Positions 1,881 to 54,988 of a stretch of DNA of 54,988 nucleotides are shown here, piece after piece. Origin of the DNA: a phage; the NCBI GenBank assembly GCA_021081985.1, contig GCA_021081985.1_3639.2. One strand, written 5' to 3'. The notes under the pieces are model-generated. The model was not told the DNA's origin, ran no database searches, and worked only from the letters and a program-made list of their open reading frames with translations. Both the position numbers and the translations under genes were made by a program. How positions within the stretch are numbered: the stretch's first letter is position 1; each line of letters starts with the position of its first letter.

Positions 1881-3881
1881 TCAAAATGGTGTGTCGTTGT
1901 CCAAATCTTCAGGTTGCTCAATAACAACAGCAGGTTCTTGTTGAGGAACAGAAACAGCAATTTTACCCACAGGTGTTTCAAGCTCTAAACTTTGAACCAT
2001 TGATTTAGGTCTTAGCATTACCTCCCCGTTGAGTTTAAACATATTGTCTTCCCACACCCATCCTGACGCATCAGAAAACTGACCATTATCATCCATAATC
2101 AGGGTATCCGCTATGCCTAATTTTTTGTGTGGACGGTTTTTCAAAACAACACTACGAATACGCCCACGAGATCGGTCAGGGAGTTCTTCAGGCTCGACAC
2201 CTAAGACAACCCACGATAACTGTTCGAGTGCTGCACTTCCCCTTAAAGATTCTTTTCTCACCGGATACCAGAAAGGTAACAAATTACCTTCTTTATCTTT
2301 CGGAATTTGTATATCAACACGCTTCATATGACTGATACTGAGGATAAACACGTCATATTTTTTGCAGAAGGCAGCCAATTCCGTCATGATGTTATCTAAA
2401 TCTCTTCGCTCGTTATCGGATTTTAATCCTGATATCACCATCGATAAGTGATCTAAGATAATCCATCTACACCCATCAAGGAAAACCATCTGTTTCAATT
2501 TTTGTAGTAATTGGTCAGTTGGTATTGAACCAAAGTGATCGAAAATTTTAACCTTATCTTCGGCAATCCATCGTTGGTGTATAGCTAAGTGCTGCTCATC
2601 GGTAAGGAATTGTTCTGGGTCTGCAACAAATGCTTTCGGGTCAATCTTTAGCTCCTCAGCATATAAGCTGTTTACAGACTCCTCCTCATCCTCCTCTAGA
2701 CGAATAATTGCAATTTTCTCGTTCTCTTTCCAACCGTCTAATCGGGGAATATCCATGTTACGGAGGTACTCGATAATTGCATACTCAATCTTTCTTGAGA
2801 AAGTTGATTTCCCAGCTCCAGATGGGCCTGTCAGTGTCCACAATTCTCCTGTTCGTGGGCCTCTTGTTAGTTCATACAAACGAGGAAAGCACGGCAACGG
2901 AACGCCATCTTTTTTCTTTTTACGGAGATTCTCAATAGATATTCTCTCCAACCCAATCAATTTATCAGGAACATATTTGTCCTGCGCTTTAGCAAACATA
3001 TTCCAGATATCCATCCATTTACCTTTTTTGTAAATATCTCGGATATCTTTAACACCATTTGGGTCATTGCGTTCATTTGGGTATCGTGCAACATAGATGT
3101 TGTCAGACAGCAAAAAACTAGCAACATCATCTGTGGCTTCCTTACCTTTCTTAATTCTGTGTTCTTTTTCCCTTGCTGTGGCTTCATCATTGTCTAAACC
3201 AAGGACTATCTTTTCATATTCCCTGATAAACTTTTCGTTGTGGGCAAATGTATCCACAGCATTGGCTGTACCACAGTTCAACCCGATAAAAGGTAATGTC
3301 GGGCAATTAGAAACCTCTTCCCCATCCTGAATTGCTTTGATGCCTTTTAAAGCATTGTTTGCCCACTCACGTACTGAACGTGACGTATTAGGATTACTAT
3401 GAAGAAATTTAATATACTCAAACCCAGCTTGCCAGCCAGCCGTTACATCGCCTTCCCCCTCAACAATAAAGATCTGTTTTTTACCAGATCCCATAGCAGC
3501 TTCATGTTGCCCAAAAAATTGAGAGGAAGCCTTCACTGTGCCAACAACAGAGAAATGCCCCTTTTTCTCTTTCGGGACGGTCCAGTCTCGTTTCTTGTAT
3601 CCTGTCAATTTCCCATATTTATCATAATATGGAAGATATGTTGCCACTACTGTAGTACCGTCTTTCAAATCTGTTGCAGATCTGATCTTGAAGTACTTAG
3701 CTGCATCTAAGCTAATATCCATTTGGGGGACAGCCAAGATCCTTGTACTATCCAAGACAGACTCTACAGTTTCTTCTTCTTTTTTCTGATAATTCACTTT
3801 ACCACCACTTTTTGTAGGCCGGAATGCTTTTGGGTTCTCACCTTCAAAGTATGCACCAGCCCCCCATTTTGTCATCTTCAT
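1881..3881 (-). CDS. Primase-helicase (T7 gp4-like, DnaB-family helicase domain)
   Basis: 666-aa ORF. Walker A LTGPSGAGKST, IILDHLSMV and LRGSAALEQLS motifs parallel T7 gp4 helicase motifs. N-terminal half is consistent with a primase domain. Confidence 0.75.
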   Translation of the reverse strand: MKMTKWGAGAYFEGENPKAFRPTKSGGKVNYQKKEEETVESVLDSTRILAVPQMDISLDAAKYFKIRSATDLKDGTTVVATYLPYYDKYGKLTGYKKRDWTVPKEKKGHFSVVGTVKASSQFFGQHEAAMGSGKKQIFIVEGEGDVTAGWQAGFEYIKFLHSNPNTSRSVREWANNALKGIKAIQDGEEVSNCPTLPFIGLNCGTANAVDTFAHNEKFIREYEKIVLGLDNDEATAREKEHRIKKGKEATDDVASFLLSDNIYVARYPNERNDPNGVKDIRDIYKKGKWMDIWNMFAKAQDKYVPDKLIGLERISIENLRKKKKDGVPLPCFPRLYELTRGPRTGELWTLTGPSGAGKSTFSRKIEYAIIEYLRNMDIPRLDGWKENEKIAIIRLEEDEEESVNSLYAEELKIDPKAFVADPEQFLTDEQHLAIHQRWIAEDKVKIFDHFGSIPTDQLLQKLKQMVFLDGCRWIILDHLSMVISGLKSDNERRDLDNIMTELAAFCKKYDVFILSISHMKRVDIQIPKDKEGNLLPFWYPVRKESLRGSAALEQLSWVVLGVEPEELPDRSRGRIRSVVLKNRPHKKLGIADTLIMDDNGQFSDASGWVWEDNMFKLNGEVMLRPKSMVQSLELETPVGKIAVSVPQQEPAVVIEQPEDLDNDTPF

Positions 3882-22440: not shown

Positions 22441-22625
22441 TTAAATATTTTTGTTGATATGATTCGATTGAGTCGAATCGTATGGTTCGATGATTTCGAA
22501 TCATAGAGTTCATAGTGTTTTGCCTGAAAGCATGAGTCGATGAGACTCTTCAGGCAATACGTGAGTGTGTAAGATGCTCACTGCGCTGATAGCTTGTGAT
22601 CATCTAACCCTCATGAGCCATTCTG

Positions 22626-22678
22626 AGATAAACACACAGAGACAAACCCTACAGGTTTGTCTCTGTGTGTTTATCTCA
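22626..22678. repeat. Perfect 24-bp inverted repeat with 5-nt loop
   Basis: GAGATAAACACACAGAGACAAACC - CTACA - GGTTTGTCTCTGTGTGTTTATCTC; no flanking T-run. Confidence 0.7.
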
Positions 22679-52286: not shown

Positions 52287-52760
52287 TTAAATCCCCTCTT
52301 TCCACAAACCATCTTTTTTAACCCACATTTTTTGGTTATCAGAACCCCTGAACCTTTTGGTTGTAGGCTTAGTCATATCATACTTACCATCTATAACAAT
52401 GTCAACAAGATTCTTAATTCTTTCAGGTATTTCTTCAAATAAATACCCTGTCCACAGCCAAATGTTTTTATCATCTCCGTAAACTGACCGTACCTTTAAA
52501 ATAATCTTTATAACACCATCAATATTTTGCGGATCAAGTGGTTCCCCACCTAAAATTGAGAGTCCTTTTATTTGCTTACGTGCCAAATCCTTTATGATTC
52601 TATCTAAATGTTCATCTGTAAACACTTCGCCATAACTGTATGACCAAGCTCTTTGGTTAAAACAGCCGCGACAACCATGACCACAACCGCTAACCCAGAG
52701 GGAGCATCGCACTCCCTCCCCGTTGATCATATCTGTTGGTTCATAACCGCAGAAATTCAT
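52287..52760 (-). CDS. nrdG: Anaerobic ribonucleotide reductase activating protein NrdG (radical SAM)
   Basis: 157 aa; GVRCSLWVSGCGHGCRGCFN carries the CxxxCxxC radical-SAM cluster motif; sits directly downstream of the NrdD C-terminal exon. Confidence 0.8.
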   Translation of the reverse strand: MNFCGYEPTDMINGEGVRCSLWVSGCGHGCRGCFNQRAWSYSYGEVFTDEHLDRIIKDLARKQIKGLSILGGEPLDPQNIDGVIKIILKVRSVYGDDKNIWLWTGYLFEEIPERIKNLVDIVIDGKYDMTKPTTKRFRGSDNQKMWVKKDGLWKEGI

Positions 52761-53241
52761 GTATGTTTCACTCTCTCAATAACCTCTTGCATCTTACCTT
52801 TGTTGTAAGGACGGCTGTTTGGAGCAGACAAATATCCAGACACACGTCTAATCACACTTATTGTTTCTTCATCATGATTGCCACAAGAAGGACACTCGAA
52901 CCCCTTGGCTGTGGCCTTAAACTCACCAGAGAAGCCACACTCGTGACATCTATCTACAGGTTGATTTATACCAAAATAAGGGATGTATTCATATCCATAA
53001 TCCACTAAGGCTTCCAATGCTTGCATGTTGTTTTTTAGATTAGGAACTTCCACATAACCTATGTTGCCACCATTACTTATCTCAGCAAACCCACATTCAT
53101 AATCCCATTTGAAGAATGGATCAGACGTTTTCCACACTGGTTGATGGAACGAGTTTGTCAAATAATCTCTTTCAATTAACCCAGGATATGCTTCTTTAAG
53201 TTTTGTGGCAAATTTATAACACAGAGATTCTGCCGATGTAC
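52757..53241 (-). CDS. nrdD: NrdD (anaerobic ribonucleoside-triphosphate reductase) 3'-terminal exon; upstream boundary approximate
   Basis: C-terminal zinc ribbon CHECGF ... CPSCGN followed by glycyl-radical motif RRVSGYL and ERVKH tail. The frame stays open upstream of the annotated TTG start (...SAESLCYKFATKLKEAYPGLIERDYLTNSFH) up to an in-frame TAA inside the intron. Confidence 0.75.
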
Positions 53242-53514
53242 CGCTGCTTTCGCAGTATTTTTACGGACTAGACTATATCACGATCTTGTGACCACTCACA
53301 AGACCCTCCACATTTCGCCATTCAAGGCTACTCTACTCGCTTCTTCACATCAGGTGAGGCTGATGCTATGCTTTCGATAGTCGTTAGAGACAATTTCTTG
53401 CCTACGGGGTTAGCTCTGCCCCCAGCGGGGTTTAGCCTTTCTTACCAGCTTATTGTTTATTCAGCTATGCCCGTTTAGTGGAGTTATTCGACAACCATCA
53501 CTGGTTGAAGGCCC
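53242..53514 (-). other. Group I intron (ORF-less, about 270 nt) within nrdD; boundaries approximate (about +/-20 nt)
   Basis: Minus strand carries CUAAACGGG, R-like AACGACUAUC, S-like GAUAUAGUC (P7 pairing GACUA/UAGUC), a GNRA-capped hairpin CUGCGAAAGCAG before the 3' junction, and a possible P1 between exon ACAACU and internal guide GGUUGU. Confidence 0.65.
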
Positions 53515-54019
53515 AGTTGTGTCTAGGCGTGCCATATAAGCTAAATGCTAAACCACTTCGCTCTTTAAAATCAGCACAAATATCCTTCATATATTTCAGG
53601 ATATTCATTGCCATCTCTTTACGAACTGGCTCACCATGCAAAATTTCAACTGCTTCATAAAGACCTACATAACCAATACTGATTGATGCGTAGCCATTAA
53701 AGAAGAGTTTACTAATCTTCTCATCAGGTCCGAGCCGTGCAATAGCCCCCTCCATAAACATTGTAGGGTTCTGGGATGCTTTTACATCCATCAATCTACC
53801 GACTCTAACCATATGCGCTTTATATGCCATTTCCATGTGCTTTTCAAGCAATTCGGTAAACAGAGTTTTCTTAGATTTTGCTTCTGCTGCAATCATAGGT
53901 AAGTTTAGAGAGACAACACCAAGATTGAATCTACCATCATATTTCTCACCATGCTCTGTTGCATAATAAGATAAGAAACTTCTACACATTATGTTCGAAG
54001 TGGTTCGCAAGGTCACTCC
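53515..54019 (-). CDS. nrdD: NrdD internal exon; boundaries approximate
   Basis: Open frame (ORF 53498..54016 plus upstream codons) with NLGVVSLNLP, IMCRSFL and GYASISIGYVGLYEAV; ends near ...SLYGTP before the intron. Confidence 0.6.
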
Positions 54020-54238
54020 CGCACCATTACGTGCTGCTGCATGTCACCATGCAGATCAGACCATATCTTCATGCTTAAAGCATGTCTGCCGTTTGGGGTG
54101 TCATCAGCTTACACTCTACATCCTTACATTCATCAGGATTGGTCGTTAGGCATTTACGGTTGATACCGATTTAGCACGGGATTCCCTCCATAGAGGATTC
54201 CCCCGTTTAGGCAGATTTTACATGAGCAGTTATAGTTT
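54020..54238 (-). other. Group I intron (ORF-less, about 220 nt) within nrdD; boundaries approximate
   Basis: Minus strand CUAAACGGGGGAAUCCUCUAUGGAGGGAAUCCCGUGCUAAAUCGG closely resembles the T4 td intron core as recalled; R-like AACGACCA and S-like GAUAUGGUC show a compensatory P7 change (GACCA/UGGUC); GNRA hairpin CUGCAUG-GUGA-CAUGCAG near the 3' end; P1 candidate exon CAUGGGU with guide GCUCAUG. Confidence 0.7.
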
Positions 54239-54544
54239 ACCCATGCTTGTAACACGCCCGTCTGAAGAACCTGTTACCTTTTTATTCAACGGTACAGATA
54301 TGAAATCTGGATAAATCCTTTCAACACAACACTCCATGGCTAATTGCTTTAAGTCGTAGTTTGGATCGCCAGGCTTCATGTTTACACCATCTTCCAAGAA
54401 GAAGATAACTTTTGGAAAAACAGGTGTGACTTTATCTTTGCCAAGTCCGTTTTTGTGAACAAGAAAATAATTCTTTGTAATCATTCTCCCAAAATAGGAA
54501 GTATCAAGCCCAAGGCTCAAGGTGATAAATGGGCATTGCATTGC
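54239..54544 (-). CDS. nrdD: NrdD internal exon; boundaries approximate
   Basis: ORF 54230..54541 (MQCPFITLSLGLDTS ... RVTSMG); the in-frame stop lies just inside the following intron. Confidence 0.55.
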
Positions 54545-54817
54545 CCACTTTATGTTTCCATAAAGACAGACTATCTCTTAGCATCTCCTAGATGCTCTCT
54601 CCGTTTCGGAGTTGGTATTTCAACCAACCACTACACTACTGGGTTGTGCTTCACAAAATCCATTTCGCACCTTTTCGTTAGTCGTTACAACCGCCAAGCC
54701 AGATGCCTGACTGGTCACGGGATTAGCATAGCTCTATGCCTTAGCGTTCCCCGTTAGCCAGAATATATCTGACCCCACTTGTGTGGTTAGGAGAGTTTTA
54801 TAACGGCCATTGTGTTA
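54545..54817 (-). other. Group I intron (ORF-less, about 270 nt) within nrdD; boundaries approximate
   Basis: Begins UAACACAAUGGCC (compare the td intron start UAAUUGAGGCC, recalled) right after exon codon GGU; contains CUAACGGGGAACG, AAUCCCGUG, R-like AACGACUAACG, S-like GAUAGUC and a GNRA hairpin CUUUAUG-GAAA-CAUAAAG before the 3' junction. Confidence 0.6.
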
Positions 54818-54988
54818 ACCGTTAGCACTCATCAAGGTATTTACCTGATAAAGCAATGTCTGCATGGCATCGTAAACATCTTTTTCCGTCATCTGCATAG
54901 CTACACCTTCTGGATCTGGCAGCCATTGCTCCTGACAAAATTTTAGATTTTTATCGTAACTTGCCTTGGCATATTGTTTTAATCCTTC
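54818..54988 (-). CDS. nrdD: NrdD upstream exon, partial (gene continues beyond window end)
   Basis: Minus-strand frame from the window edge reads EGLKQYAKASYDKNLKFCQEQWLPDPEGVAMQMTEKDVYDAMQTLLYQVNTLMSANG, then a stop at the proposed intron start. Confidence 0.45.

Follow-up and report, generated by a model that had tools for sequence, protein, structure and literature searches.

The nrdD gene of phage T4, which encodes the anaerobic ribonucleotide reductase (RNR), carries a group I intron, sunY, that splices itself. RNR genes are the phage genes most often interrupted (PMC3653736), and several introns may sit in one gene: nrdE of Brochothrix phage A9 holds three introns and an intein (PMC3653736), polymerase and terminase genes of Bastillevirinae hold two or three introns each (PMC11878797) and, as cited in the latter paper, Twort orf142 contains three group I introns and undergoes exon skipping (Landthaler and Shub 1999). 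Introns have been documented across the Vequintavirinae (PMC7344957); in the literature searched, introns in rV5-like nrdD genes were not described, the rV5 paper covering terminase introns only. Here we analyze the nrdD locus of an rV5-like coliphage of the Vequintavirinae, located at the right end of a 54,988-nucleotide (nt) stretch of DNA (GenBank assembly GCA_021081985.1, contig GCA_021081985.1_3639.2; hereafter "the window", numbered from its first letter). On the minus strand, this nrdD very probably carries three endonuclease-free group I introns, designated A, B and C, that would be spliced out after transcription to give an intact NrdD protein.

Results

Excision of three inserts restores the NrdD reading frame

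The gene runs past the window end (54988) inside its first exon, leaving ~230 N-terminal codons outside, as judged against Escherichia phage vB_EcoM_TH18 (TH18). Its four segments on the minus strand correspond to successive parts of the Pfam NRDD profile: the partial exon 1 (54818-54988, ending ...AACGGU and collinear with TH18 up to the junction) covers 115-152, exon 2 (54239-54538; 100 codons) 155-263, exon 3 (53525-53986; 154 codons) 263-415 and exon 4 (52757-53233) 440-562, the last additionally matching Gly_radical and containing the glycyl-radical motif RVSGYL, the zinc-ribbon cysteines and the stop codon. Excision of intron A (54539-54817; 279 nt), intron B (53987-54238; 252 nt) and intron C (53234-53524; 291 nt) joins these exons into a single frame of 469 codons plus stop, which aligns to residues 136-604 of T4 NrdD (E value (E) 4e-125) with zero gaps at the junctions. 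Intron A lies between the Gly and Gln codons of SANG|QCPF (SSNGQTPF in T4; G190|Q191), intron B between the Gly and Cys codons of SMG|CRSFL (PMGCRSFL in T4; G289|C290, the catalytic cysteine) and intron C between the Pro and Ala codons of YGTP|AESLCY (STPAENLCY in T4; P444|A445), where excision restores the conserved motif YGTPAES.

All three introns are in phase 0, i.e., between codons; every 5′ exon ends in U and every intron in G. Omission of exon 2 (300 nt) or exon 3 (462 nt) would leave the frame intact. The boundaries of B and C were set by the reading frame and the alignment to T4 NrdD, and those of A by its exact absence in TH18, up to a 3-nt repeat that the U|...G| rule settles. Among open reading frames (ORFs) of at least 30 amino acids overlapping an intron, none had a Pfam match. 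The first in-frame stop past the 5′ junction occurs immediately in A (UAA), two codons on in B and eight codons on in C. Much of this layout had been anticipated in an earlier reading of the window (the original prediction): the four segments are indeed contiguous parts of NrdD and the early in-frame stops are present, as are the three non-coding gaps, whose size had been put slightly low at about 220-270 nt.

AUG forms the final three bases of introns A (54539-54541) and B (53987-53989), in frame with the next exon. This terminal AUG is seen in A only in the window copy and is kept in B in most relatives (as AUAAUG). It is probably coincidental in both, though it could permit translation of the downstream exon from unspliced RNA.

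Support for a group I fold in all three introns

A search with the Rfam group I model RF00028, a check named in the original prediction, matched intron B at 80.9 bits (E 5e-19), above the gathering score of 50 bits. Permissive searching matched A at 41.8 bits (E 1e-8) and C at 15.4 bits (E 0.86), both under the gathering score, which is a detection threshold and not a defining property; the Herelleviridae relatives of C and several ORF-containing relatives likewise remain under it. Run over the whole window, the permissive search gave no group I match beyond A, B and C. Since RF00028 is weak for A and C, each intron was tested against its own relatives.

The core motif reads CUAACGGGG...AAUCCCGUG in A, CUAAACGGGGG...AAUCCCGUG in B and CUAAACGGGC...AACCCCGU in C, with AACGACUA present in A and C and AACGACCA in B. 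The 5′ strand of P7 is GACUA in A (54679-54683, minus strand; invariant in the A family), pairing with UAGUC at 54569-54573, GACCA in B (54140-54144, minus strand), pairing with UGGUC at 54059-54063, and GACUA in C (53378-53382, minus strand), pairing with UAGUC at 53271-53275. P1 pairs the end of the 5′ exon with an internal guide (AACGGU/GCCGUU in A, AUGGGU/GCUCAU in B and GCCU/GGGC in C), and the introns close with the terminal G expected of the family (omega-G: ...CAAUG in A, ...UAAUG in B and ...CAUCG in C). The P9 hairpins of all three are GNRA-capped, by GAAA in A and C and by GUGA in B. The elements quoted in the original prediction can thus be found, with two amendments: A has GAGA rather than GAUA before UAGUC, and the GNRA hairpin described as lying just before the 3′ junction is ~50 nt upstream of it in B. 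Single-sequence minimum-free-energy folds recover most core helices (z-scores of -3.25, -1.71 and -3.06 for A, B and C, respectively).

Phage-type introns, subgroup IA in the classification of Michel and Westhof, have the extra hairpins P7.1/P7.2. In A, B and C alike, extra hairpins are predicted between the 5′ strand of P7 and the 3′ strand of P3: inserts of 75 nt in A and 66 nt in C fold into hairpins, some of them covarying, and in B four of the five P7.1 pairs are doubly changed and P7.2 is conserved. By these predicted hairpins, all three introns are of the phage-type IA. Covariation with relatives, described below for each intron, supports the full group I fold in all three.

The possibility that A, B and C are recent duplicates of each other was ruled out, as they have merely 7-15-nt core motifs in common; from their relatives, we take them to be three unrelated lineages and the products of three independent acquisitions. 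As they are not mutual copies, the difference between GACCA/UGGUC and GACUA/UAGUC in P7, which had been read as a compensatory change arguing for function, is real but marks family membership rather than recent compensatory evolution. Within-family covariation and a ratio of non-synonymous to synonymous divergence (dN/dS) of 0.045 across the spliced frame are the stronger functional evidence.

Intron B belongs with the T4 sunY intron

Intron B was aligned with its counterparts from TH18, phi92, nepoznato, JEP1, navn, Felixounavirus SUT_S820 and T4 sunY (n = 8 including the window), with endonuclease ORFs cut out and helices P1-P10, including the P3/P7 pseudoknot, mapped by hand. In this alignment, 94.7% of cells were paired and 33 of 70 pairs doubly changed, a result reached by 0 of 500 shuffles; controls with the partners slid by 1-3 columns were 30-47% paired. 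P1 and P7 were 100% paired across the eight sequences, the P7 pair that varies within the family being U-A in six of them and C-G in the window and TH18.

Intron B is 78% identical to the T4 nrdD (sunY) intron over 193 nt (E 5e-38) and has the guide GCUCAU in common with it, which places B in the T4 sunY lineage; A and C have just 7-15-nt motifs in common with sunY. The core had originally been likened to that of the T4 td intron, for which this more specific homology of B has to be substituted. T4 nrdD does have an intron, as had been pointed out, but at a site different from those of A, B and C, namely in codon 180, 32 nt upstream of site A. A placement of the T4 intron at site A was rejected: the tblastn alignment had overrun into the intron, the true junction lying in codon 180. 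The upstream exon reads AUGAGU at the T4 site and AUGGGU at site B (54239-54244, minus strand), and both pair with GCUCAU. Guide pairing at both sites would fit movement of the intron between them. T4's own, uninterrupted site B reads AUGGGU|UGC.

B-type introns occupy exactly site B in seven relatives (TH18, phi92, nepoznato, JEP1, navn, the IMG/VR locus L012 and SUT_S820); the NrdD of SUT_S820 is only 35% identical to that of the window. Four of the seven carry an HNH ORF in the P6 loop. The ORF-less B intron of phi92 (P6a, 3330-3370 of the phi92 locus) keeps a long P6a stem and, apparently, the leader of the nepoznato HNH ORF with its Shine-Dalgarno-like run, and seems to be a deletion derivative; in the window, P6a of intron B is short, as in T4 sunY.

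Intron C resembles introns of phages of Gram-positive bacteria

Intron C was found solely in the TH18 group (four phage records), the TH18 copy being 97.6% identical. Its nearest other matches are introns of virion, DNA polymerase and terminase genes in Bacillus and Enterococcus phages (E 1e-9 to 1e-13), and it has in common with these Herelleviridae introns a near-identical, two-hairpin P4-P5 extension. On an alignment of the window, TH18 and three Herelleviridae introns, using an unguided RNAalifold structure with P7 added, 91.8% of cells were paired and 29 of 60 pairs doubly changed (0 of 500 shuffles; slid controls 32-44%), counts that are biased toward the fold because the structure was predicted on the same alignment on which it was tested. 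By its matches, C is assigned to a lineage whose other members were seen in phages infecting Gram-positive bacteria.

Intron A is an ORF-less member of a Vequintavirus intron family

Intron A begins with UAA, ends with AUG and has no ORF. It was aligned with introns of navn, L012, FV3 and JEP1, all of which lie at exactly site A; the window copy is 77% identical to these Vequintavirus relatives and no closer. Unguided RNAalifold recovered P1, P3, P4, P5, P6 and P9. A compensatory change is seen in P3 (CUCUCC/GGAGAG versus CUCUGC/GCAGAG), P8 is wholly different in sequence among the members yet paired in all, and P6, P8 and P9 covary. FV3 and JEP1 carry an HNH ORF in the P8 loop, and the navn and L012 copies are ORF-less. 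We thus place A as an ORF-less relative of the HNH-carrying Vequintavirus nrdD intron lineage. A-type introns were found in 42 phage records and C in 4, with zero overlap. An exact 24-mer of the window's intron A had no match in IMG/VR, and a conserved A-family 22-mer led there to one contig with A and B and without C.

The P3 suggested for A by the Rfam alignment (CUGG at intron nt 57-60 with CCAG at 176-179) was rejected: it is broken in FV3 and JEP1, the change U58C being compensated within a local hairpin and not in P3. P3 was reassigned to nt 23-28 and 216-221, supported by the navn/L012 compensatory change and by unguided RNAalifold. Canonical group I introns have ~3 nt between P3 and P4. 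In intron A, two hairpins (nt 32-61; 54757-54786, minus strand) are inserted between the 5′ strand of P3 and P4; they are present in all five A-family sequences, show compensatory changes and are flanked by UAA on each side. A literature search for P3-P4 insertions yielded a sole precedent, the "noncanonical insertion between P3 and P4" of yeast mitochondrial aI5beta (PMC2396411). A further hairpin, which is not a canonical group I element, spans the 3′ splice site of A (54531-54546, minus strand), where intron positions -8 to -5 pair with downstream exon positions +5 to +8. It covaries with the exon codons: GGGC/GCCC in the window, GGGG/CCCC in navn and L012, and GGAG/CUCC in FV3 and JEP1.

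The spliced gene and its introns are constrained

The records closest to the window are TH18, another member of the Vequintavirinae (96.9% identity), and three near-identical marmot isolates. In TH18, B and C are present and A is missing to the nucleotide. Comparison of the spliced frames of the two phages showed 37 synonymous and 7 non-synonymous differences, which occur in all four exons (dN/dS 0.045; dS 0.14). The introns differ at 4 of 252 nt in B (1.6%) and 8 of 291 nt in C (2.7%), all of these intron changes being compatible with the fold. The low dN/dS, together with the low and fold-compatible intron divergence, argues that nrdD is under purifying selection as a spliced whole and that the introns themselves are constrained.

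Proposed splicing and alternative explanations

Group I splicing chemistry is established for the family. Once transcribed, A, B and C would each fold into a ribozyme whose guide, near the 5′ end of the intron, base-pairs with the 3′ end of the exon before it to form P1, in which a U·G wobble marks the cleavage site. An exogenous guanosine bound at P7 would attack the 5′ splice site, and the released exon would then attack after the terminal G, joining the exons. With all three introns removed, one mRNA would encode an intact NrdD, complete with the catalytic Cys, the glycyl-radical Gly and the zinc ribbon, co-expressed with NrdG. It is plausible that the in-frame stops at or near the 5′ junctions halt ribosomes ahead of the ribozyme core; early stops in T4 introns reportedly keep ribosomes from the core (reference 66 of PMC3653736, as cited there). 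Lacking endonuclease genes, the introns would be incapable of unaided homing and probably persist by vertical descent and recombination. Since sites A and B hold endonuclease-bearing introns in relatives, their occupation is expected to confer immunity to cleavage, and this protection from the endonucleases of related phages may be a reason for their retention.

The original prediction of an nrdD split by three ORF-less group I introns is borne out by the frame obtained on excision, the splice-site rules, RF00028 and covariation. Several observations nevertheless weigh against this interpretation. A and C score under the Rfam gathering score, and an E of 0.86 for C is not significant alone; the P1 of C has merely 4 base pairs (bp); a convincing P10 pairing was looked for in A and C and none was found (B forms five bp with its downstream exon); P9.2 of the window's intron B contains an A·C mismatch where TH18 has G-C; and the covariation counts for C carry the bias stated above. 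Splicing of these three copies is itself an inference. In addition, three introns are a minimum count, given that the N-terminal part of nrdD lies outside the window.

Some of these points would also be expected if at least one intron, most likely C or A, were a decayed, non-splicing relic and nrdD a pseudogene. The sub-threshold Rfam scores of A and C, the P9.2 mismatch in B and the ORF-less state of the introns, a late stage of the homing cycle, are in line with such decay. Yet the Herelleviridae relatives of C fail the Rfam threshold as well, so that its low score reflects the model rather than decay, and the phage keeps intact catalytic and radical motifs in nrdD and a translationally coupled nrdG, and the dN/dS of 0.045 was obtained between two phages that both contain B and C, with differences in every exon, even downstream of C. 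We consider this explanation very unlikely. The slow divergence of the introns, far below that of synonymous sites, argues against a model in which the inserts stay in the RNA and NrdD is made as four separate, assembling polypeptides, as reported for the NrdA of Aeromonas phage Aeh1 split by mobE. Split but active phage RNR genes are known (PMC3653736, PMC7344957), and A and B do end in an AUG in frame with the next exon. However, this AUG is not kept in the A-family relatives of A, exon 4 lacks a start codon close to its beginning (the first in-frame one is 24 codons in), a break at site B would separate Gly289 from the catalytic Cys290, and a mere spacer need not keep a complete, covarying ribozyme fold, all of which makes separate polypeptides highly improbable. 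That intron A is an assembly or chimera artefact could be suspected from the nearest genomes being without it and from the absence of this exact variant from all phage-collection and IMG/VR records. But it is inserted with nucleotide precision and in keeping with the U|...G| rule, at the same codon boundary as the family members of FV3, JEP1, navn and L012, while an identity of 77% indicates a distinct family member and no pasted copy; an artefact is accordingly given next to no weight. Removal of three group I introns by splicing thus remains the interpretation we strongly favor.

Distribution among phages and neighboring features

Most of the 2,900 phage records with an NrdD homolog have an uninterrupted gene, and the best 60 of these 2,900 contain two introns at most. 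No other three-intron nrdD was found in the phage collection or IMG/VR. Among Vequintavirus, Stephanstirmvirinae and Felixounavirus (FV3, JEP1, navn, phi92, nepoznato and SUT_S820), nrdD introns lie at sites identical to A and/or B, many of them with an HNH ORF; those examined have two introns at most, and C is absent outside the TH18 group. The phi92 record annotates a spliced nrdD variant. Since one or two introns are found at these sites in relatives and three per phage gene have been documented elsewhere (PMC11878797, PMC3653736), the initial description of the arrangement as unusual was overstated.

Several records in the range MG065639-MG065690 are labeled Campylobacter jejuni phage and match rV5-like and phi92-like coliphage nrdD loci, introns included, which suggests mislabeled or contaminant genomes. 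Next to nrdD lies the activase gene nrdG (52287-52760, minus strand; Pfam Fer4_12 and Radical_SAM), whose start lies within the nrdD stop in an ATGA (52757-52760, minus strand), implying translational coupling of reductase and activase. Elsewhere in the window, Rfam mir-3149 matched at 22624-22678 (minus strand) with 37.7 bits and E 0.0012, below its gathering score of 100; in a phage genome, this is almost certainly a hairpin that arose by chance.

Discussion

The three-intron nrdD is a tidy intron accumulation but a well-known kind of phage element, and it leaves the understanding of how such introns work unchanged. Its recognition has a practical side: the nearest public genomes file nrdD as three or four "large subunit" fragments, and taking the introns into account gives one correct protein. 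Beyond annotation, the locus provides a natural comparison set in which three ribozyme lineages, judged unrelated, lie within 2.2 kb, phages of 97% identity differ in whether they have intron A, and two of the introns exist in endonuclease-bearing and endonuclease-free versions at the same sites. At least four phage groups have a sunY-type intron adjoining the codon of the catalytic cysteine. With these features, the locus lends itself to work on the homing cycle, on how introns are lost, on ectopic transposition and on exchange among phages of distant hosts.

It is conceivable, although we regard it as unlikely, that B and T4 sunY represent one lineage that came to occupy two nrdD sites via guide-directed reverse splicing and not homing, with nrdD of this phage group acting as a sink for T4-like, rV5-like and Gram-positive-phage introns that would be kept without endonucleases by shielding their sites from the endonucleases of co-infecting relatives. 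If true, the locus would preserve a natural case of group I intron relocation by reverse splicing.

Among known systems, the T4 sunY intron is like B in its host gene nrdD, its guide GCUCAU, its P7.1/P7.2 extension and a homologous 3′ tail. It differs in its site, lying within codon 180 (phase 1) as opposed to between codons 289 and 290 (phase 0), and in its content, being 1033 nt long with the GIY-YIG endonuclease I-TevII downstream of P9, whereas B has 252 nt and no ORF. The Herelleviridae introns from Bastillevirinae DNA polymerase and terminase genes and the terminase gene of Enterococcus phage iF6 have the same core as C, with P2, P3, P5b, P8 and P9 covarying; they reside in other host genes and in phages of Gram-positive hosts, and two of the three examined contain HNH or VSR ORFs, unlike C, which is ORF-less and sits in nrdD of a coliphage. 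In the number of introns, the closest parallels are Twort orf142 and Brochothrix A9 nrdE, each a single phage gene with three self-splicing introns, as proposed for this nrdD, albeit in other genes and in phages of Gram-positive hosts. Unlike in that comparison, the present gene appears to combine three dissimilar lineages with different guides, and with different guide sequences in A, B and C, exon skipping would be less likely here.

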